This document shows, one piece after another, positions 4,851-29,533 of a stretch of DNA of 40,215 nt. A program made the position numbers and the translations under genes. The notes under the pieces are model-generated. The model saw nothing but the letters and a program-made list of their open reading frames with translations, had not been told where the DNA came from and did not search any database. The stretch spans positions 1 through 40,215 of the IMG/VR virus record IMGVR_UViG_3300012231_000022; one strand, given 5' to 3'. Position 1 is the stretch's first letter. Each line of letters starts with the position of its first letter. Source of the DNA: a virus. Taxonomy: Duplodnaviria; Caudoviricetes.

Positions 4851-6507
4851 TCCCGGCCAGCTCTGCAAGCGCTACTACCGTCTGGTGTCGGACCAGGCGA
4901 ATTTCCGTCAGACGTGGCAGGACCTGGCCGAGTTCTTCACGCCGTACAAGGCCAACATCACGGTCACCACCGCGCCCGGCACGCGCAAGACATCGCGCCT
5001 GTTCGATTCAGAAGGCGTGACGGCGGCGCGCACGCTCAGCTCGAACATCCTCGGCGCCGTCGCCAACCAGGCGCAGGAATGGTTTTCGATCCGCGTCCGC
5101 GACGACGCGCTCAACGCAGTGAAGCCCGTGCGGGACTGGTGCGAGGACGTCGCCAAGCGGACGCTCGCCGCCCTCGTCGCCTCCAACTTCTACACGGAGC
5201 TGTCCGAGGTGATCGGCGATCTGCCCGTCTTCGGCATCGGCGGGCTCTTCATCGATGAGAAGGACCCGGTGGGCCCGAACCGCTTCGGTGGCCTGCACTA
5301 CGTGGCCCAGACCATCGGGCACTATGTGTGCGCCGAGAACGCCGACGGCCGCGTCGACACCGTCTTCCGGGACTTCACGTGGCCGGCGCGCGAGGTGTTC
5401 GCGCAGTGGCCCGACACGTGCTCGCCCCGCGTGCGCGATGCCGCCAAGGAGCCGACCAAGCAAGACGAGCCGGTCAAGCTGCTGCACGCCGTCTACCCGC
5501 GCAATGTCTACGCGGTGGGCTCGCGCGCGGCGACGCACAAGGCGTTCGCGAGCTGCTACCTCGAGCACGACGCGAAGACGCTGCTGGGCGAGGGCGGCTT
5601 TGACGACAACCCGTATGCCGTGGGGCGGTGGGAGAAGGACAGCCAGAGCGCCTGCGGCTGGGGCCCGGGCAGCATCGCCTATCCCGATGTCCGGACGCTC
5701 AACCGCTACGTCGAGCTCGACCTCCAGGCGCGCGGCAAGGCCGTCGACCCGTCCCTGATCCAGCGCGCGGACGGCATCCTCGGCTCGCTCTCGCTCGAGC
5801 CCGCGGCCATCAACATCACGACCGACGAGGACCCGTCCAAGACCGTCTTCGCGCTCGAGAGCAAGGCGCGCTTCGACGTCAACAGCGACGGCATCGAGCG
5901 GCTCGAGCGCAAGATCAGCAAGGTCTTCTTCGGGCCGCTCCTGCGCGAAGTCACCAAGGACATGACGCTCGGCGAGGCGCTGATGGTGCAGGACGAGACC
6001 ATGCGCCTGATGGGCCCCGCGGCGGGCCGCATGCAGACGGAGATCCTCGGCCGCGCCATCGAGCGGAGCATCGGCGTGCTGTCCCGGGCCCGGCAGCTCC
6101 CGCCCCCGCCCCCCGAGCTGCTGGAGGCCGGGTTTGATGCCGAGCTGGACATCGTCTACCAGGGGCCGCTGGCGCGCGCCCAGAAGTCGCGCGACCTGGT
6201 GGCGATCGAGCGCAAGAACGCCTGGGTGGCGCAGGTGGCGCCGTTCAAGCCCGAAGTCGTCGACGTCTACGATTGGGACGCGGAGGCGCGGCATATCGGC
6301 GAGGTGACCGGCTACCCCTCCGACCTCGTGCGCGGAGAGGACGCGGTGGCCGAGATCCGCGCCAACCGGGCGAAGGCGCAGGCCGCGGCCACGAAGCTCC
6401 AGGTGATCGGCGGGGCGGCCGAGGCCGCGGGGAAGGCCGCGCCGATGGTGAAGGCCCTCAGCGATGCGAACGCGCAGCAACAGCCCCAGGGAGCCGCCGC
6501 GGCATGA
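4840..6507 (+). CDS. Portal (head-tail connector) protein
   Basis: 555 aa; WQDLAEF..LFDSEG..WF..SNFY..FGIG..GWGPG..YQGPLARAQ motifs of the BPP-1/T7-type connector; GGAGG SD. Confidence 0.9.
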   Translation: MPADPGQLCKRYYRLVSDQANFRQTWQDLAEFFTPYKANITVTTAPGTRKTSRLFDSEGVTAARTLSSNILGAVANQAQEWFSIRVRDDALNAVKPVRDWCEDVAKRTLAALVASNFYTELSEVIGDLPVFGIGGLFIDEKDPVGPNRFGGLHYVAQTIGHYVCAENADGRVDTVFRDFTWPAREVFAQWPDTCSPRVRDAAKEPTKQDEPVKLLHAVYPRNVYAVGSRAATHKAFASCYLEHDAKTLLGEGGFDDNPYAVGRWEKDSQSACGWGPGSIAYPDVRTLNRYVELDLQARGKAVDPSLIQRADGILGSLSLEPAAINITTDEDPSKTVFALESKARFDVNSDGIERLERKISKVFFGPLLREVTKDMTLGEALMVQDETMRLMGPAAGRMQTEILGRAIERSIGVLSRARQLPPPPPELLEAGFDAELDIVYQGPLARAQKSRDLVAIERKNAWVAQVAPFKPEVVDVYDWDAEARHIGEVTGYPSDLVRGEDAVAEIRANRAKAQAAATKLQVIGGAAEAAGKAAPMVKALSDANAQQQPQGAAAA

Positions 6508-6812
6508 GCGACGAGCACCTCACCGCCGAGCAGGCGCAGGCCGCGCGGAAGGCGCTGCTCGACGACTACGTTCTGACCTTCACGTCGCCCCACGGGGCAC
6601 GTGTGCTCGAAGACCTACGGGCCAGCGCGTTCGTCTACCGGAGCACGGCCGTGACCGATCACAACGGCCGCGTGGACCCGGCGGGCGTCGTGTTCCGCGA
6701 GGGCGCGCGCGGCGTCGTGCTCGCGATCGAGACGAATCTCAGGAAGGCCAAGCAAGGGCGCCCGGAACTTCAAACCCATGCGGTGTCGAGCACCGCGGAA
6801 CAGGACACGTGA
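6504..6812 (+). CDS. Bbp19-like conserved post-portal protein
   Basis: DYVLTFTSPHGARVLEDL...FREGARGVVLAI motif and synteny. Confidence 0.7.
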   Translation: MSDEHLTAEQAQAARKALLDDYVLTFTSPHGARVLEDLRASAFVYRSTAVTDHNGRVDPAGVVFREGARGVVLAIETNLRKAKQGRPELQTHAVSSTAEQDT

Positions 6813-7012
6813 TGAACGAGCACATTCTCCAGTTCTTCGCCTTCGCGCATCTGCCGGCGCCCATGGCCGACGTGTCCCGGCCGTTCTGTGAACTCGCGCA
6901 GCAAGTCGTCGACACGCTGCCGCGCAACCCGGAGAGGACGGTAGCGCTCCGCAAGCTGCTCGAGGCGAAGGACGCCGCGGTGCGCGCGCTCATCGCCAAG
7001 GACACGCCGTGA
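6812..7012 (+). CDS. 66-aa helical-hairpin protein, candidate Acb2/Tad1-like nucleotide sponge
   Basis: ILQFFAFAHLP...LPRNPERTVALRKLLEAKDAAVRA; coupled start and stop. Confidence 0.55.
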   Translation: MNEHILQFFAFAHLPAPMADVSRPFCELAQQVVDTLPRNPERTVALRKLLEAKDAAVRALIAKDTP

Positions 7013-7209
7013 TGGCTGACGACAACGGCGGCAAGCCGAAGGTTACGGTGAACCCGGGCTTTCGCGCCCTCATGGAGCCCTTCGAGGCCATGACGCACGA
7101 CGAGCGCGAAGCGGCCGCGGTGGCCCTGCTGAGCCAGCTCGTGGGCACCGTCATGCAGGCGCTCAGCCAGGGCCACGTGGTCATTCCCGACCTGCGGAGG
7201 CCGCTGTGA
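7012..7209 (+). CDS. Hypothetical protein
   Basis: Coupled on both sides. Confidence 0.55.
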   Translation: MADDNGGKPKVTVNPGFRALMEPFEAMTHDEREAAAVALLSQLVGTVMQALSQGHVVIPDLRRPL

Positions 7210-8075
7210 GGCCCCGCTTCCGTCTCCTCCGCGCCGAGGGCGACGCGGCGGCCGCGGCCGAGGGCCAAGGGGCTGGTGCGGGCGCCGGAGCGGGTGCAGC
7301 GGCCGCCGCTGGCGCTGCAGGAGCCGCTGGCACGGTGCCCGAGTGGCGGCAGCAGATCCCCGAGGCGATCCGCGGCGAAAAGACGTGGGACAAGTTCAAG
7401 GACCCGGCCGCCTTCTACCAGAGCTATCACGCAATGGAGAAGATGCAGGGCTCCATGGTCAGCATCCCGGGCAAGGACGCCAAGCCCGAGCAGGTGGCTG
7501 CCTTCCGCGAGAAGCTCGGCGTGCCCAAGGATCCCGGCGGCTACACGCCGCCCCAGGGCGAGGGCCTCGACCAGGCGCGCTGGCAGCGCTGGACGGGCCA
7601 CGCCCACAAGCTCGGCCTGACGCCGGAGCAGCTCACCGGCCTGGCCACGCTCGAGGCCGAGGAGCGCGCGGACCAGGGGCGCACGATGCGGCAGAGCTTC
7701 ACGGCCGGCCTCGACGCGCTCAAGCAGGAGTGGGGCGAGGGCGTGTTCGCGAAGAACGTCACCCTCGCGTCGCGCGCCGTCGACCGCCACATGTCGCCCG
7801 AAGGGAAGAAGTTCCTCGACGACAGCGGCCTCGGCGATCACCCCGAGCTGGTGAAGGCGTGGGCGTCCGTCGGGGCGCTCCTCGCGGAGGACCGCTACAT
7901 CGAGGGGCGCGTCGCGGGCCTGCCCAGCGTGGATGAGGCCAAGGCCGAGATCGCGATGATCCGCGCCGCGGGCAAGGCGCACCCGGCGAACAACCCGAGC
8001 CTGCCGGGGCACCACGAGGCCGCGGCGAAGCTCGAGGGCCTGTACCGCCTCGCGCATCCCGGCAAGGCGGCGTAG
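7206..8075 (+). CDS. Capsid scaffolding/assembly protein
   Basis: Ala/Gly-rich N-terminus; EKLGVP..Y, AHKLGLTPEQ, LKQEWG, GLGDHPELVKA motifs; precedes capsid gene. Confidence 0.85.
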   Translation: MRPRFRLLRAEGDAAAAAEGQGAGAGAGAGAAAAAGAAGAAGTVPEWRQQIPEAIRGEKTWDKFKDPAAFYQSYHAMEKMQGSMVSIPGKDAKPEQVAAFREKLGVPKDPGGYTPPQGEGLDQARWQRWTGHAHKLGLTPEQLTGLATLEAEERADQGRTMRQSFTAGLDALKQEWGEGVFAKNVTLASRAVDRHMSPEGKKFLDDSGLGDHPELVKAWASVGALLAEDRYIEGRVAGLPSVDEAKAEIAMIRAAGKAHPANNPSLPGHHEAAAKLEGLYRLAHPGKAA

Positions 8076-8224
8076 TCCGTCGCACGCAGCCCCGTTCCAC
8101 AGTCCGGGGCAAGCCGCGAGGCTCCCGGCGAAGTAACAGCGCGTGAAGCTGTAGAAGGGTCGGGCGACCGGCAACCCTTCGTCGTGCAGTGCAAGCAGCG
8201 GATTCACGACGGAGGACGCAGACA
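8076..8224 (+). ncRNA. Structured 5' leader / cis-regulatory RNA of the capsid gene
   Basis: Hairpins at 8104-8128, 8136-8152, 8154-8180 and alternative stem 8176-8186/8205-8215 over the GGAGG SD. Confidence 0.55.
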
Positions 8225-9103
8225 GTGGCTCTACAGGATGAGGCCTGGTTTATTCACGCAGTCTCGGACAACGTCACCCAGCTCGCGCAGCAGAAGCGGA
8301 AGAAGACGGAAGGCTCGACCCGCGTCAAGGACGGCGTGGTCGGCAAGACGTGGCCCTTCAACCGGATCGGCTCCGTCGAGATGAGCCCGGTGGCGCGCGA
8401 CACCGATACGACGTACGTCAACCCGCCCCAGTCGAAGCGCCGGGCGCAGCTCAATGATTTCGGCCTCGCGGCCCTGATCGACGACTTCGACGTGATCAAG
8501 ACCCTCACCAGCCCGCAGAGCGAGATCGCGCAGATCCTCGCCTACGGCCGGAGCCGCAAGATCGACGACTTTGCCCTTGCCTCGGCACTGGCGTCGGCGA
8601 TCACCGTGGACGAGGCCGGGGAGACCACGGGCACCCAGGCCATGCTCGCGGCCAACATCATCGCCAACGGCGGCGCCGGCCTCACCCTCGCCAAGATCAC
8701 GCAGACCGCGGAGATCATGAACGGGACCGACGTCGACGCGGACGATCGGTACTTCTTCTACTCGGCGCACGCCATGACGAATCTCCTGTTGAACACGCAG
8801 GCCACGTCCTCCGACTACTCCACGCTGCAAGCCCTGATGCACGGCAGCTTCCCCTTCGACGCGCAGTGGATGGGCTTCTTCTGGCGCATGACGACGCGCC
8901 TGCCGAAGACCGGCAACATCCGCTCCTGCATCGCGTGGCAGAAGAACGCGATCGGCGTGGCGTTCGGCCTGGTGCAGGAGGTGGAGACGGGCCGGGACCC
9001 CGGCAAGTGGAACAATCCGTTCGTGATGCTCAAGCTCTCCGGTGGCGGCTGCCGCGTCGATGACCTCGGCGTGGTGCAAGTCGACATCGACGAGACGGTG
9101 TAA
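8225..9103 (+). CDS. Major capsid protein
   Basis: GTG 8225 after GGAGG; QLAQQK..FNRIG..KRR..RKIDD..WMGFFW..GGCRVDDLGVVQVDIDE pattern of BPP-1-like capsids. Confidence 0.88.
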   Translation: MALQDEAWFIHAVSDNVTQLAQQKRKKTEGSTRVKDGVVGKTWPFNRIGSVEMSPVARDTDTTYVNPPQSKRRAQLNDFGLAALIDDFDVIKTLTSPQSEIAQILAYGRSRKIDDFALASALASAITVDEAGETTGTQAMLAANIIANGGAGLTLAKITQTAEIMNGTDVDADDRYFFYSAHAMTNLLLNTQATSSDYSTLQALMHGSFPFDAQWMGFFWRMTTRLPKTGNIRSCIAWQKNAIGVAFGLVQEVETGRDPGKWNNPFVMLKLSGGGCRVDDLGVVQVDIDETV

Positions 9104-9115
9104 GGAGGCGCCCCC

Positions 9116-9574
9116 ATGGCCACCATCTACGCAGACGAACTGGTTCGGCAGCGCGCGGGGCGCAACCTCCAGCCCCACGAGTGGCACGGCAAGGTGCGCG
9201 AGATCAAGTACGACTTCGCCGCCTTGCCGGCGGGCAACGTCGGCGACGTCCTCGTCCTCGGCCGCCTGCTCAAGGACGAGCGGATCCTTCTCGGCGCGGA
9301 GTGGCACAGCGCCGGCGGGGCCGGGACGTTCCACATCGGCACCTACGCGATCGCGGCCGACGGGATCTCCCTCGGCGCGGTCATCACCGCGGCGCAGTTC
9401 GTGAACGGCGCCAGCAACGCCGTCAGTGCCGCGCCGCTCCTCTGGCCGTTGACCACGGCGACCTTCCCGAACTTCATCGCGACGGCCGACGTGTTCCTCG
9501 CGATCACCAACGTCGGCACGGCCTTCACCACGGCGGCGCGCTTCACGGGCTCCGTGCTGATCGTCGGCGACTGA
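9116..9574 (+). CDS. Capsid cement/decoration protein
   Basis: Strong SD AAGGAGG; beta-rich 152 aa directly after capsid gene. Confidence 0.65.
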   Translation: MATIYADELVRQRAGRNLQPHEWHGKVREIKYDFAALPAGNVGDVLVLGRLLKDERILLGAEWHSAGGAGTFHIGTYAIAADGISLGAVITAAQFVNGASNAVSAAPLLWPLTTATFPNFIATADVFLAITNVGTAFTTAARFTGSVLIVGD

Positions 9575-9582
9575 TCTCAACC

Positions 9583-9612
9583 GGGCGGCGGGGCTGCGGC
9601 TCCGTCGCCCTT
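9583..9612 (+). terminator. GC-rich hairpin (terminator/attenuator) after capsid-cement genes
   Basis: gggcggcggggc-tgcg-gctccgtcgccc followed by only TT. Confidence 0.45.
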
Positions 9613-9624
9613 GGAGGACCGCGT

Positions 9625-9852
9625 ATGAAGGCCAAGGCTCGGTACACGGTGACCGCGATCGGCGGCACGTCCGTCACGCTCACGCCGAAAGGCGCCGGGG
9701 GGCGCGAAGATGATGACCTCGGCGGCGCACCCGGCCTCTTCGGCACGGGCACCATCGTCGTCACGCAGGGGGCGACACCCGACGCTACGTTCTGGAAGCT
9801 CTTCTCGGCCTCCGGCGTGGAGTACCTCGTCGAAGTGACGCGGCTCGGATAA
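9625..9852 (+). CDS. Small beta-rich virion-associated protein
   Basis: GGAGG SD; late operon. Confidence 0.6.
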   Translation: MKAKARYTVTAIGGTSVTLTPKGAGGREDDDLGGAPGLFGTGTIVVTQGATPDATFWKLFSASGVEYLVEVTRLG

Positions 9853-9855
9853 CCC

Positions 9856-10230
9856 ATGGCCACCATCACGCCCGTCCGCGTCCAGACGCCGTACGACGTC
9901 GACATGGAGATTTGGAAGTGGATCGGCATGGCGGCCGGCGACGTCGCGCTGCCCGTCCTCTGCAACTACAAGCAGGACAAGAGCGTCAAGTGGATCGCGG
10001 CGACCGTGGGCACGGCCGTCGCCACCATCCAGGGCGACATTGACCCCGCGGGCGGCAGCTTCGCCATCCTGCACGACACGCGCGGCTTCGCCAACCCGCT
10101 CACCATCACGCTCGCCACCACGGCCACCATTGCCCAGATTCTCGAAGCCTGCTACGCGGTCAAGCCCGTCCTGACGGGCGGCGCGACCACGGCGGGCTTC
10201 GACACCTGGCTGTTCTTGCGAGGGAGGTAG
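9856..10230 (+). CDS. Putative head decoration protein
   Basis: Beta-rich 124 aa with clear coding bias. Confidence 0.6.
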   Translation: MATITPVRVQTPYDVDMEIWKWIGMAAGDVALPVLCNYKQDKSVKWIAATVGTAVATIQGDIDPAGGSFAILHDTRGFANPLTITLATTATIAQILEACYAVKPVLTGGATTAGFDTWLFLRGR

Positions 10231-10236
10231 CTCTCC

Positions 10237-10785
10237 ATGCCCAAGACGCCGCCCGAGTCCTCCCTGCCCGCGCCGGCCCCGGAGCCGGCCCGCCCCGCGA
10301 TGCCCGCCACGCAGGCGCGCGAGCTGGCCCGCGACGAAGTCGCGCGCTGGACGCGGGCCCTCGAGGTGCTCACCGCGGCGGCGACCTACGAGGACGAGGC
10401 AGGGGATCTCGACCGACGCCTCGCGCAGCTCCGCGAGACCCGCGCGACGGCCGAAGCCGCGCATGCGGCCGTCCTGTCCGAGCACGAGCGGACGGCGGCG
10501 GCGGCCGAAGCGGACGCCCAGCGTCGCATCGATGCGGCGGATGCCGACGCCAAGGCGATCGAGGCCGAGCGGGACCGCGTCGTCACCGAGGCGCAGGCCG
10601 CGATCGACGCCAAGCAGGCCGAGCTGATCCAGATCGAGCGCGATCGGAACGCGGCCAAGACGAAGGCGACGGAGGAGCTGGCCGAGCTCCACGCGCAGAA
10701 GGAAGCCACCCAGGCCGAGGTGGACGAGACGGTGCACCGCATCGGAGACGCCGTGCGGGCGAAGCTGACGGCGGCGCGCAGCTAG
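10237..10785 (+). CDS. Coiled-coil protein
   Basis: A/E/R-rich heptad character; GGGAGG SD. Confidence 0.65.
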   Translation: MPKTPPESSLPAPAPEPARPAMPATQARELARDEVARWTRALEVLTAAATYEDEAGDLDRRLAQLRETRATAEAAHAAVLSEHERTAAAAEADAQRRIDAADADAKAIEAERDRVVTEAQAAIDAKQAELIQIERDRNAAKTKATEELAELHAQKEATQAEVDETVHRIGDAVRAKLTAARS

Positions 10786-16495: not shown

Positions 16496-16830
16496 TGACC
16501 GCCCCCCACATCGCCGAGGGCCGGATCGTCGTCACGTGGTGCCCCGAGGGTGTGCCGCTCGGCTGCATCACGGGCCAACTGCACGCCACGACGCCGCCCG
16601 GCTTCGAGGTGGACTGGATCATCCGGTTCCCGGAGAGCCTGCCGGGCGCGGGCGCGGAGATGTGCCTCGCGCTCCTGCCGGTGCTCGTCGAGCGCTACCA
16701 GCTCCGCTGGGTGCTGGTGAAGATCCACGACGCGTACAAGCCCGAGTGGCTCACGACGATGGCGCGGCGCTTCGGCTTCGTGTTCCAGGAACGCCAAGGG
16801 CCGCTGGCGCTGTGGAGGAAGGACCTGTGA
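16495..16830 (+). CDS. GNAT-fold-like protein 2 (T7 gp13-like position)
   Basis: EGVPLG..FEVDWIIRFP..LTTMARRFGF; between nozzle and first ejection protein. Confidence 0.5.
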   Translation: MTAPHIAEGRIVVTWCPEGVPLGCITGQLHATTPPGFEVDWIIRFPESLPGAGAEMCLALLPVLVERYQLRWVLVKIHDAYKPEWLTTMARRFGFVFQERQGPLALWRKDL

Positions 16831-17390
16831 TCACCCTCGTGAGCGGGCTACCGCGCAGTGGCACCAGCCTCGTCATGCGGATGCTCGGCGCCGGCGGGCA
16901 CCCGCTCTGCTACGACCAGCCGGAGTCCTTCGAGTGCGCCGGCTTCCCGCACGTTGATCTGAACGCGGCCGAGGGGCGGGCGCTGAAATGGCTGGACCCG
17001 TTCACGCTGGGCGGGCCGCCGTCGGGGCGCGCGTATCGGACGATCGTGCTCACCCGCGGTCCGCACGAACAGGCGCGCTCGATGCTGCGCTTCGTCGCGG
17101 CCGCGCTCGGGATGCGCCTGCCCGCCGCGGGGCTCGTGGAGGCGCTCCGACGCGACACGCCCCGGCTGGCGCCCTTCTGGGGCGCGTACGGGCCGGTGCT
17201 GCCGCTCACCTTCGAGGACCTCCTTGCGCATCCGCACGAGACCGCCGGCCAGCTCGCGACCTTCTGCGGCCTCCCGTTCTCGGTGGCGATGGCCGCGCAG
17301 GTGCGTGCCAGAGGCCCTCAGGCGTCAAAGGAGCCCCGTGAGCTGACGATGGCGCACGATCCCGCCCTCTGGCATGGAGCGCCCGCGTGA
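16827..17390 (+). CDS. Sulfotransferase-family P-loop protein
   Basis: ITLVSGLPRSGTSLVMRML (5'-PSB loop), IVLTR..EQARS (3'-PB), LTFEDLLAHP. Confidence 0.75.
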   Translation: MITLVSGLPRSGTSLVMRMLGAGGHPLCYDQPESFECAGFPHVDLNAAEGRALKWLDPFTLGGPPSGRAYRTIVLTRGPHEQARSMLRFVAAALGMRLPAAGLVEALRRDTPRLAPFWGAYGPVLPLTFEDLLAHPHETAGQLATFCGLPFSVAMAAQVRARGPQASKEPRELTMAHDPALWHGAPA

Positions 17391-27054: not shown

Positions 27055-28071
27055 CTAGGGCGCCGGCGCGGTCCTCACGGACGTGTAGCGCGCCTTCAGC
27101 CGGAGGAAGGGGCGCTCAAGGGAGTGGTAGGATACGGCGGCGAGCGCCAGGGTGAGGGCGAACGCCGCCGGCAGCTTGTACGGCCACCACCAGGCGCTGA
27201 CCACGTGGATCGCGGCCATGTGGAAGACGTAGAGCCCGTACGAGATCCGGCCCAGATAGACGAGCGCCGGGTGCGACAGCCACGCCGAGCCCGCCAGCGC
27301 CGCCACGAGCGCCCCGCCACAGGCCAGCGAGGCCCCCAGAAACGCGAGCGTGACCACGGCGGGGGCCATAGCGACCGGGTTGCTTGCGGGCGGCGCCAGC
27401 AGCCACCGCCACAGCACCACGGCCACGGCGAGCACGACCAGCGGAGCGCTCGCGCCCAGGACGCCCCGCGCGGCGGGGCAGAGCTCCACGCGCGGCGCTA
27501 GCGCGATGAGCGCGCCAAGGCCGAGGGCGTCGAGATGCGCGACGCTGTTGAACCAGGCTGCCCCGACGCTGACGCCCGCCAGGTACAGGCCGTATCGGCC
27601 GGCGACGGCGACGACGACCAGGGCGACGCACGCCGGCCGCAGGAGAGACCGCGGGAGCACGGTCAGCACGAGCGGCCAGGCCACGTAGAACTGCTCCTCG
27701 ACGGACACGCTCCACAGGTGGGCGATCGGCCCGGGCCCGGGGTCCTCGACCCAGTTGCCGGCGAAGAGCGCGAAGGCGACCAGCGCTCGATCCGGCATCC
27801 CGGCAACGATCGCGTTGGCGAACAGAAAGCTGAAGTAGAGCGGCCAGATCCGGAGCGCGCGCCTGGCCCAGAACGCCAGCACGTTGATCCGCCCGGTAGC
27901 GTCGGATTCGCGGACAAGGAGCGCGGTAATGAGATACGACGAAAGGACGAAGAACAGCTCGAGGCCGGCCGCGGTGCCAACATACGTCGCCGCCGGGGCG
28001 GCGTGTCCGATGAAGACCGACAGGAAGGCGAGGAAGCGGAGGCCGTCGAGCTGAGGGATGTAGAAGCGCAT
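27055..28071 (-). CDS. Acyltransferase-3 (OafA/Oac-like O-acetyltransferase)
   Basis: LDGLRFLA..H, FFVLSSYLI, RRALRIWP, HLWSVSVEEQFY, GRISYGLYVFH, SYHSLERP. Confidence 0.93.
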   Translation of the reverse strand: MRFYIPQLDGLRFLAFLSVFIGHAAPAATYVGTAAGLELFFVLSSYLITALLVRESDATGRINVLAFWARRALRIWPLYFSFLFANAIVAGMPDRALVAFALFAGNWVEDPGPGPIAHLWSVSVEEQFYVAWPLVLTVLPRSLLRPACVALVVVAVAGRYGLYLAGVSVGAAWFNSVAHLDALGLGALIALAPRVELCPAARGVLGASAPLVVLAVAVVLWRWLLAPPASNPVAMAPAVVTLAFLGASLACGGALVAALAGSAWLSHPALVYLGRISYGLYVFHMAAIHVVSAWWWPYKLPAAFALTLALAAVSYHSLERPFLRLKARYTSVRTAPAP

Positions 28072-28405: not shown

Positions 28406-29533
28406 CTACTTCACCCGCCTCAACCGCTTCGATTTCGGCGCCGGCTCCGGTACGACAACGGGCGGATTCGGCTCGTCCTCCACCCACGCGCGCCCTTTCG
28501 ACGGCATCCAGCGGGCATAGTACCGGAGCGTCGTCTCCGGCGTGCGGTGCCCGAGCTGCGCGGCGACGTAGGTGATCGGCGCGCCGGCCGCCAGCCGGAG
28601 CGAGGCGTACGTGTGGCGCAGATCGTAGAGCCGAAACCCCTCGAGCGTCGCGGCCGTGCGCGCCCGCCGGAACGCCTTGCCCGCTTTCGACAGGTCGCGC
28701 GGCCGGCCGGCCGCGTTGAAGAAGAGCCAGCCCGACTTGTCGCATGGCGGTAAGGCGTACAGTGCGGCCGCCAGGCCTCGGGGCACGTCGATCACGCGCG
28801 TCTCGTGCGTCTTCGTCGGCCGGAGGACGCCCGCCACCCACGCGCGCTCGATGCGGAGCGACGCCTCCGTCGCGTTCAGATCCGCGCGCCGGAGCCCGAG
28901 GCCCTCGCCGGGCCGGAGGCCGGTTTTGGCGAGCAGCTCGAAGTAGACCGCCCACGCGGGCTCCGTCGTGCGGGCCACGGCCAAGAAGGCGTCGCGCTCC
29001 TCCAGGCTCATCGGCTTGACCCGCTCGTACCGCTCGATCGCCGTCAGCGTCTCGCCCCGTCGCCGGCGACCGCGGCCGATCCCGAGGCAGGGGTTCGCCA
29101 CGATCAGCCCGGCCTCGGCCGCATCGGCAAGGCACGCCGACAGCGCCGCGCGGATCCCCCGCACGGACTGTTTCGCCTGCGTCCGAGCCTTCTCCGTGAG
29201 GAGCGCCCGGATGCGCGCGCGGGTCAGCGCGCCGAGGGCGAGGGCGCCGAGCGTGGCGAGCACGTGGCCCGTGAGCCGCTCGCGGTAGTTCAGCAGCGTC
29301 TTCGGGGCGACGTGGGGCGCGATCTCCTCGAGCCACCGCGCGACGTAGTCGGCGAGGGTGATCGTCGGCGGCCCGCCGGCCTGCCGCGGCCCGACGGCGC
29401 CGACCTCGACGCGCCGGGCCCACTCGGCGCCGCGCGCCTGGCCCTTCGTCGCGTACCCCTCGCGCTTGGCGAGCGTGCCGCGGTGCCAGAAGCGGTAGCC
29501 GTAGCCGCCCGCGGGCGTGCGGAAGAGGGTCAT
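28406..29533 (-). CDS. int: Tyrosine integrase
   Basis: TGLRPGE, PTKT, LYDLRHTYAS, QLGH, TLRYY; N-terminal arm-binding and SAM-like domains. Confidence 0.95.
   Translation of the reverse strand: MTLFRTPAGGYGYRFWHRGTLAKREGYATKGQARGAEWARRVEVGAVGPRQAGGPPTITLADYVARWLEEIAPHVAPKTLLNYRERLTGHVLATLGALALGALTRARIRALLTEKARTQAKQSVRGIRAALSACLADAAEAGLIVANPCLGIGRGRRRRGETLTAIERYERVKPMSLEERDAFLAVARTTEPAWAVYFELLAKTGLRPGEGLGLRRADLNATEASLRIERAWVAGVLRPTKTHETRVIDVPRGLAAALYALPPCDKSGWLFFNAAGRPRDLSKAGKAFRRARTAATLEGFRLYDLRHTYASLRLAAGAPITYVAAQLGHRTPETTLRYYARWMPSKGRAWVEDEPNPPVVVPEPAPKSKRLRRVK

Follow-up and report, generated by a model that had tools for sequence, protein, structure and literature searches.

A two-state RNA leader before podoviral capsid genes, predicted to gate capsid translation and perhaps read by the scaffolding protein

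The scaffold-capsid locus

The stretch of viral DNA examined here (the window: 40,215 nucleotides, the whole of IMG/VR record IMGVR_UViG_3300012231_000022) is a podovirus-like genome with an integrase. Its head module runs in the order portal (PF12236), scaffold, PF19821 capsid and tubular tail genes, which is the order of the PF19821/HTVC010P type. The capsid scaffolding protein gene (7206-8075, plus strand like the capsid gene and the leader elements between them; phrog_3742/phrog_458), whose product we propose as a regulator, is followed by the HTVC010P-type major capsid gene (8225-9103; PF19821, phrog_3437). The latter has a GTG start, and the closest cultured relatives, at approximately 33% identity, are HTVC010P-type pelagiphages. 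An in-frame GTG at 8189 was dropped as a capsid start because the homologues begin at the 8225 codon. The two genes are separated by 149 nt (8076-8224), whereas the other gaps of the module are mostly -13 to +12 nt and two seemingly longer ones contain small ORFs or a hairpin; a first reading of this DNA (the sequence-only reading) had singled out the gap as a rare real spacer in a tightly coupled operon, and it is one. A scan of window positions 6500-10500 for sigma-70 promoters and terminators found none. In four related loci (L013, L034, L071 and L091, the last from ZP6), a sigma-70-like -35/-10 pair was seen by eye directly 5' of the leader.

The gap encodes a series of potential helices. 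The tetranucleotide ACAG (8099-8102) lies immediately 5' of P1 (8104-8128), a GNRA-capped hairpin with the first copy of a bulge motif: the pair G8108-C8124, then U8123 opposite G8109-CAA8112, then the pair G8113-C8122. A short hairpin, P2 (8136-8152; arms 8136-8140/8148-8152), precedes the switch hairpin, P3 (8154-8180), which is the predicted ON state and carries the second motif copy in reversed orientation (G8159-C8175, U8160 opposite G8171-CAA8174, C8161-G8170). Its 3' strand, 8175-8180, is shared: it can pair with 8154-8159 or with the Shine-Dalgarno (SD) side, where the helix 8176-8186/8205-8215 (spanning 8176-8215) forms the predicted default OFF state. This 11-bp stem, with one G-U pair, covers the SD sequence GGAGG (8211-8215; position -14 to the start codon), and its upper part, 8181-8186/8205-8210, is compatible with either state. 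All three hairpins and the 11-bp stem had been described in the sequence-only reading and are present in the sequence. The bulge that it placed in P1 and P3 is likewise a real repeated motif, but its register is ambiguous, the best being one pyrimidine opposite four nucleotides. A further pairing that it proposed, 8076-8082 with 8207-8213, exists as a sequence match; nevertheless, its probability is at most 0.004 and it reaches z < -2 in only 1 of 25 leaders. As it is neither populated nor conserved, we reject a function for it and attribute the match to chance.

Several other features of these loci were recorded. Some relatives encode a capsid with a hydrophobic N-terminal extension of 30-50 residues (proteins P0020, P0041, P0042, P0055, P0068, P0080, P0082, P0088, P0097 and P0105; loci L008, L013, L030, L031 and L037). 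The extension mostly ends in glycine directly before the residue aligned to position 2 of the window capsid, which suggests a cleaved leader. Three loci (L007, at 959-1483, L029 and L042) have an ORF, HNH/endonuclease VII-like by eye, inserted after the RNA leader and ahead of the capsid start codon, where it would fall under leader control. In the window, positions 6812-7012 encode a 66-aa protein that matches phrog_1761 and phrog_5120 (function unknown) and no Pfam family, and that we take to resemble the small cyclic-nucleotide sponge proteins of phages. A strong 12-bp GC hairpin without a U tract (9583-9610) lies after the gene that follows the capsid gene. Elsewhere in the window are a sulfotransferase-family gene (16536-17390), an acyltransferase-3 gene (27055-28071) and a tyrosine integrase gene (28406-29533).

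Conservation of the leader

The single-sequence fold of the leader is weak. Over 166 nt its z-score is -1.67, with 14 of 200 shuffles folding as well, and the minimum free-energy structure contains neither bulged hairpin; we regard this score as uninformative for the leader. Comparison with Rfam 15 matched no family at its gathering score: the window and 20 related loci gave no hits, the best E value for the leader being 2.6. Among 11 loci searched at E <= 1, the only match was a glutamine-II riboswitch in P-SSP7 (L115, 3523-3576), which is separate from the capsid leader motif and lies upstream of it. Because the window fold alone was unremarkable and Rfam was empty, loci of capsid homologues were collected for comparison.

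This yielded 49 distinct leaders, of which 26 with the full layout, including the window, were picked by eye and aligned. Their common layout consists of ACAG, P1 with its GNRA loop, a GNNAGA-loop hairpin, the short hairpin, the switch hairpin and the SD-side helix. The tetranucleotide is ACAG or AAAG in 22 of the 26; the GNNAGA-loop hairpin, 5' of the short hairpin, is found in most relatives and is absent from the window, L003, L005 and L020. Over 25 pairs, 91.4% of 615 alignment cells are paired, against 39-48% in slid controls, and two-sided (compensatory) changes occur in 20 of the 25 pairs, a level reached by 0 of 500 column shuffles; the by-eye choice and the kinship of the 26 leaders inflate both the pairing and the covariation figures. 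For this reason an independent check, blind to the capsid, was added. A DNA pattern scan returned 22 hits, 16 of them without an inner stem; the six with a proper inner stem (five distinct) all precede PF19821 capsids, and on the covariance model three inner-stem loci that had not been used in training reach 102-110 bits. The leader also stays with the capsid gene where extra genes part the latter from the scaffold gene, and in several relatives it lies far from the scaffold stop codon. The comparative sequence data rescue the weak single-sequence signal and confirm a structured capsid leader.

Competing helices over the Shine-Dalgarno sequence

The two-state arrangement was analysed in the 24 of 26 leaders that could be parsed. 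The switch hexamer plus 6 nt pairs with the SD side of its own leader at -15.6 kcal/mol and with those of other leaders at -9.5 kcal/mol, and in 19 of the 24 leaders the own pairing beats shuffles at z < -2. The 6-bp switch helix forms in every one of the 22 sequences that were given, and five of its six pairs covary. Position 4 of the shared strand is a purine in six leaders, and all six have a pyrimidine in both partner strands, a double change that the purine-richness of SD sequences does not explain. Covariation and folding models both describe an expression platform in which mutually exclusive helices control the SD. The sequence-only reading had proposed a two-state translational switch triggered by a protein or ligand; the covariation of both competing helices supports such a switch, and the candidate trigger is considered below.

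The SD-occluded state is the predicted default. In folding models it is favoured by a median of 6.2 kcal/mol, and by 2.6 kcal/mol in the window; the open state is favoured in 2 of 24 leaders and some relatives require more than 10 kcal/mol to flip. For the window, a computed bonus of 2-3 kcal/mol on the bulged hairpin flips the fold. The modelled ON state raises SD accessibility in the window only from 0.02 to approximately 0.25, and in the 24 leaders from a mean of 0.11 to 0.41.

Such a switch might operate without any ligand. The bulged hairpin would form first, during transcription or under ribosome masking, and would leave a timed window for translation until the SD helix forms. In the folding model the switch hairpin indeed has an occupancy of 0.33-0.97 up to the point where the SD is transcribed, and disappears afterwards. 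Likewise, P1 of the window is predicted only when 8076-8090 are masked (0.83 versus 0.02-0.2), a mask that a ribosome at the scaffold stop codon might provide. Nevertheless, a purely kinetic device leaves unexplained why a two-copy bulge is conserved in sequence and recurs on other platforms, and in several relatives the distance of the leader from the scaffold stop codon does not suit it. We consider this explanation quite unlikely and favour a switch on which something acts through the bulges.

A small bulge motif shared by several podovirus groups

The motif on both bulged hairpins places a pyrimidine opposite four nucleotides, between a G-C pair on one side and another pair on the other. 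A strict scan of all 40 kb of the window finds on the plus strand only the two leader hairpins, and one hit on the minus strand. In the HTVC010P group the helices follow the same order and 49 of 64 leaders contain both copies; the controls gave 2 and 1 of 64 (coding), 2 of 189 (shuffles) and 5 of 64 (reverse strand). The anti-SD helix is weaker in this group, with z < -2 in 29 of 52. All 30 leaders of Syn5-like cyanopodoviruses have one copy, against 4/30 in coding sequence, 24/150 in shuffles and 13/30 on the reverse strand; no anti-SD helix is evident in them by eye. In L202, L205 and L213-L219 of the Syn5-like set, complementarity was noticed by eye between the 5' arm of the hairpin bearing the motif and a pyrimidine tract immediately 5' of the start codon, which may represent a different switching scheme. 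YeP5-like prophages contain the motif in 51 of 51 leaders, often twice. In 37 of these 51 a hexamer complementary to the SD stands just 5' of the first copy, and the prophages L336-L415 have a terminator-like hairpin after the scaffold gene. The motif also occurs in P-SSP7, in the T7-like Ralstonia phage P-PSG-11-1 and in pelagiphage Hroenn. Hosts come from several phyla.

Other groups differ. The canonical motif is present in only 3 of 60 leaders of the MEP301 group, which instead conserve a C-C bulge variant (55/60; control 19/60). BPP-1-like phages have gaps of 6-46 nt with motif hits in 11 of 57 at scattered positions, which is consistent with chance. The motif is absent from the gaps of T7, Piluca and APEC (93, 11 and 14 nt, respectively), and neither the motif nor the scaffold segment described below was found in phiKMV and SP6. 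The full covariance model recovers the window's own group, and not the HTVC010P, Syn5 or YeP5 leaders; the kinship of these three rests on the small motif and, for HTVC010P, also on the shared order of helices.

In architecture the motif resembles the C-loop, which is likewise an asymmetric hairpin loop with three extra nucleotides on its long strand (PMC9516175 and PMC2952876). Set against the trans Watson-Crick/Hoogsteen rules that PMC9516175 gives for the first bulge base and its cross-strand partner, 80 of 155 motif copies have allowed combinations, 66 have G-G or U-G, seven have others and two have excluded ones; the forbidden C-U does not occur. Canonical pairs close both ends of a C-loop, whereas one closing position of the motif is A-C in 123 of the 155 copies (G-C in 14, G-U in 12 and A-U in 6). 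G-G and U-G may be compatible first-base combinations as well. Owing to the A-C closing position we call the motif C-loop-like only, and a C-loop fold with two crossing base triples would be putative here.

These features bear on the nature of the ligand. Besides the start codon and SD-side positions, only three columns are invariant in the 26 sequences of the window's group, and copy number and orientation vary between groups, so that neither the fixed architecture nor the many invariant nucleotides of an aptamer are seen. A small-molecule or ion riboswitch with two symmetric pockets would account for the classic strand-displacement platform, and the frequent A-C opposition (123/155) could be pH-sensitive; the glutamine-II riboswitch just upstream in P-SSP7 shows that podophages do carry riboswitches. 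Yet the conserved part comprises approximately six nucleotides in variable copy number, orientation and spacing, Rfam has no match and the regulated gene is structural. We therefore regard a riboswitch as highly improbable here. The label 'riboswitch-like' of the sequence-only reading, if taken in the metabolite sense, is not supported, given so small a core attached in variable number and orientation to different expression platforms. A protein-binding site would suit a motif this small, which varies in copy number, orientation and platform, better than an aptamer for a metabolite, and a protein-responsive switch is the reading that we pursue below.

Co-occurrence with a scaffold N-terminal segment

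Motif-bearing phages have in common an N-terminal scaffold segment of approximately 38 residues. In the window it corresponds to residues 45-82 (7338-7451), is predicted to be helical and is our candidate RNA-binding element. Profiles find the segment in 56 of 56 HTVC010P-group loci, 14 of 25 Syn5-like loci (flank-limited) and 31 of 45 window-group loci, many of the misses in the last being scaffolds whose start is out of range or diverged; a second profile finds it in 65 of 78 YeP5-like loci. The profiles find it in none of 77 BPP-1-like loci, though the scaffold core is detected in all 77, and it is absent from the full scaffolds of T7, Piluca and APEC. The MEP301 group, with its three canonical motifs in 60, looked discordant at first; however, 45 of 54 of its loci contain a variant segment alongside the variant C-C bulge. 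A forward test started from the segment. Four phages with the segment were taken: in RHEph21 and CRP-361 the scan detects the motif, in Lau218 it is visible by eye on a stem longer than the scan allows, and Lo5R7ANS falls outside the motif count. RHEph21 also has an annotated tRNA-Asn (L425, 2699-2772) in the space separating its scaffold and capsid genes, 5' of the motif.

The capsid tree (28 rows) shows that the double-negative phages are scattered. T7 is sister to the double-positive Hroenn (99/94) and Piluca to YeP5 (95/91), while APEC, BPP-1 and phiKMV/SP6, the last on long branches, are placed elsewhere. Double negatives thus occupy three or more separate positions, and the number of independent contrasts is no more than three or four. 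Part of the motif loss is trivial, as the phages concerned have short gaps or phage-polymerase promoters and little or no leader. There are also discordant cases: Vibrio 1.257 has the segment by eye and no motif in its 69-nt gap, and in DvSI2, L047 and 3 of 55 HTVC010P-group loci the scan finds no motif to go with a segment that is clear or doubtful. With a net charge of -4 to +3, the segment lacks basic character, and it could serve an unrelated role in assembly.

The AF2 model of the window scaffold has a mean pLDDT of 79.6, and the Atlas structural neighbours of the scaffold include T7-type capsid assembly proteins. Foldseek returned no match to the model at E <= 0.001, a PDB sequence search with the scaffold gave nothing relevant, and the best VIA-align Z was 4.6, a comparison in which the N-terminal part was barely tested. 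Folded alone, the segment reaches a pLDDT of 58.

The joint presence and absence of RNA motif and scaffold segment lends real, though indirect, support to the part of the sequence-only reading that named the scaffold as a possible ligand. The same switch could have another binder, which would be either the capsid protein or a host factor that binds RNA, such as a C-loop-recognising ribosomal protein. The motif always adjoins the capsid gene, even when extra genes separate the scaffold gene, C-loops are described as protein-binding sites (in the available part of PMC2952876), and hosts of several phyla would suit a universal host factor. Neither binder, however, predicts the joint loss of the scaffold segment or the paired variants of the MEP301 group, and activation by the capsid protein would be positive feedback; these alternatives appear rather unlikely. 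Co-occurrence would fit any use of scaffold binding, including one in which the bulges tether the scaffold to capsid mRNA for co-translational assembly or mRNA protection, with the SD helix as secondary tuning. Conservation of the motif in Syn5-like phages, where no anti-SD helix is evident, agrees with tethering. In the window's group, on the other hand, the motif sits directly on the switching helix and shows three-way covariation, and we judge tethering as the main function very unlikely.

Proposed mechanism

Comparison of related sequences establishes the helices, the competing pairings of 8175-8180, the repeated bulge and the joint presence or absence of motif and segment. The explanation that we prefer, at roughly an even chance of being correct, is a leader switch that is OFF by default and through which free scaffold turns on capsid translation by binding the bulges. 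In the folding models the SD-sequestering fold is the favoured state without help. The scaffold segment would bind the two bulged, C-loop-like sites, and this binding would stabilize 8154-8180, free the SD and license capsid translation. Scaffold consumed in procapsids would no longer activate, and capsid synthesis would therefore follow the pool of free scaffold.

A broader proposal, which we hold tentatively and at somewhat less than an even chance, is that T7-related podoviruses, among them the HTVC010P-type pelagiphages and the cyanopodoviruses, share an ancient and so far unrecognised feed-forward circuit. The scaffold would have a small element dedicated to RNA binding that reads the C-loop-like site in the capsid leader and licenses capsid translation, and the scaffold may remain bound to the message, where it would receive capsid protein as it is made. 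T7, SP6, phiKMV and BPP-1 would have lost both parts and would rely on promoters or tight coupling instead; on this broader proposal, the loss in these model phages is why the circuit never showed there.

How the capsid:scaffold ratio is set is known for few phage systems. The present finding offers a defined RNA site, a candidate binder of 38 residues and a switch that can be tested with reporters, and the motif ranges over the very large marine HTVC010P-type group (for which the search tool estimates about 4,600 stored stretches with matching capsid patterns), cyanopodoviruses and enterobacterial prophages. If the proposal is true, a structural protein would act as a translational activator, the MEP301 group would provide natural co-varying variants of a new small RNA-protein pair, and the leader would be a compact ON switch for synthetic use.

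Comparison with known systems

Literature searches found no description of the leader element, with overlap possible for T7-like members in one survey. In the parts of Fremin et al. (2023; PMC10690425) available to us, five structured-RNA candidates are placed at most 25 nt from PHA00201 (T7-like) capsids, one precedes a Podo-type capsid and two precede N4-type capsids. Those parts propose neither a function nor a switch or ligand for them, and PF19821 is absent from the table of downstream domains. These candidates may overlap the T7-like motif members. The RNA element is real, widespread and apparently undescribed, and the switch is well supported in the window's group.

The nearest mechanistic parallel is the Com-mom system of phage Mu, in which, according to the portion of PMC6483171 available, a phage protein binds a hairpin beside an inhibitory structure and exposes a translation start; the corresponding mechanism here is our inference. 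The leader has the same elements, an inhibitory structure over the initiation site and an adjacent conserved hairpin, and co-occurrence makes the binding of a phage protein that raises translation a candidate. Com is a zinc-finger protein that recognizes a loop motif and controls a DNA-modification gene (same portion of PMC6483171), whereas the window leader has an internal bulge in two copies, would act on the capsid gene and has a structural assembly protein as its candidate binder. Among the window proteins scanned, none was identified as Com-like. The scaffold of P22 offers a second parallel: free scaffold reportedly represses its own gene post-transcriptionally and thereby reports on procapsid assembly. 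Both cases would use free scaffold as a post-transcriptional regulator that reports assembly, yet P22 is said to repress the scaffold's own gene, whereas the proposed effect of the scaffold in these T7-related podoviruses is activation of the capsid gene by way of a defined RNA switch. By analogy, the leader would work like Com-mom and echo the autoregulation of P22 while belonging to neither.
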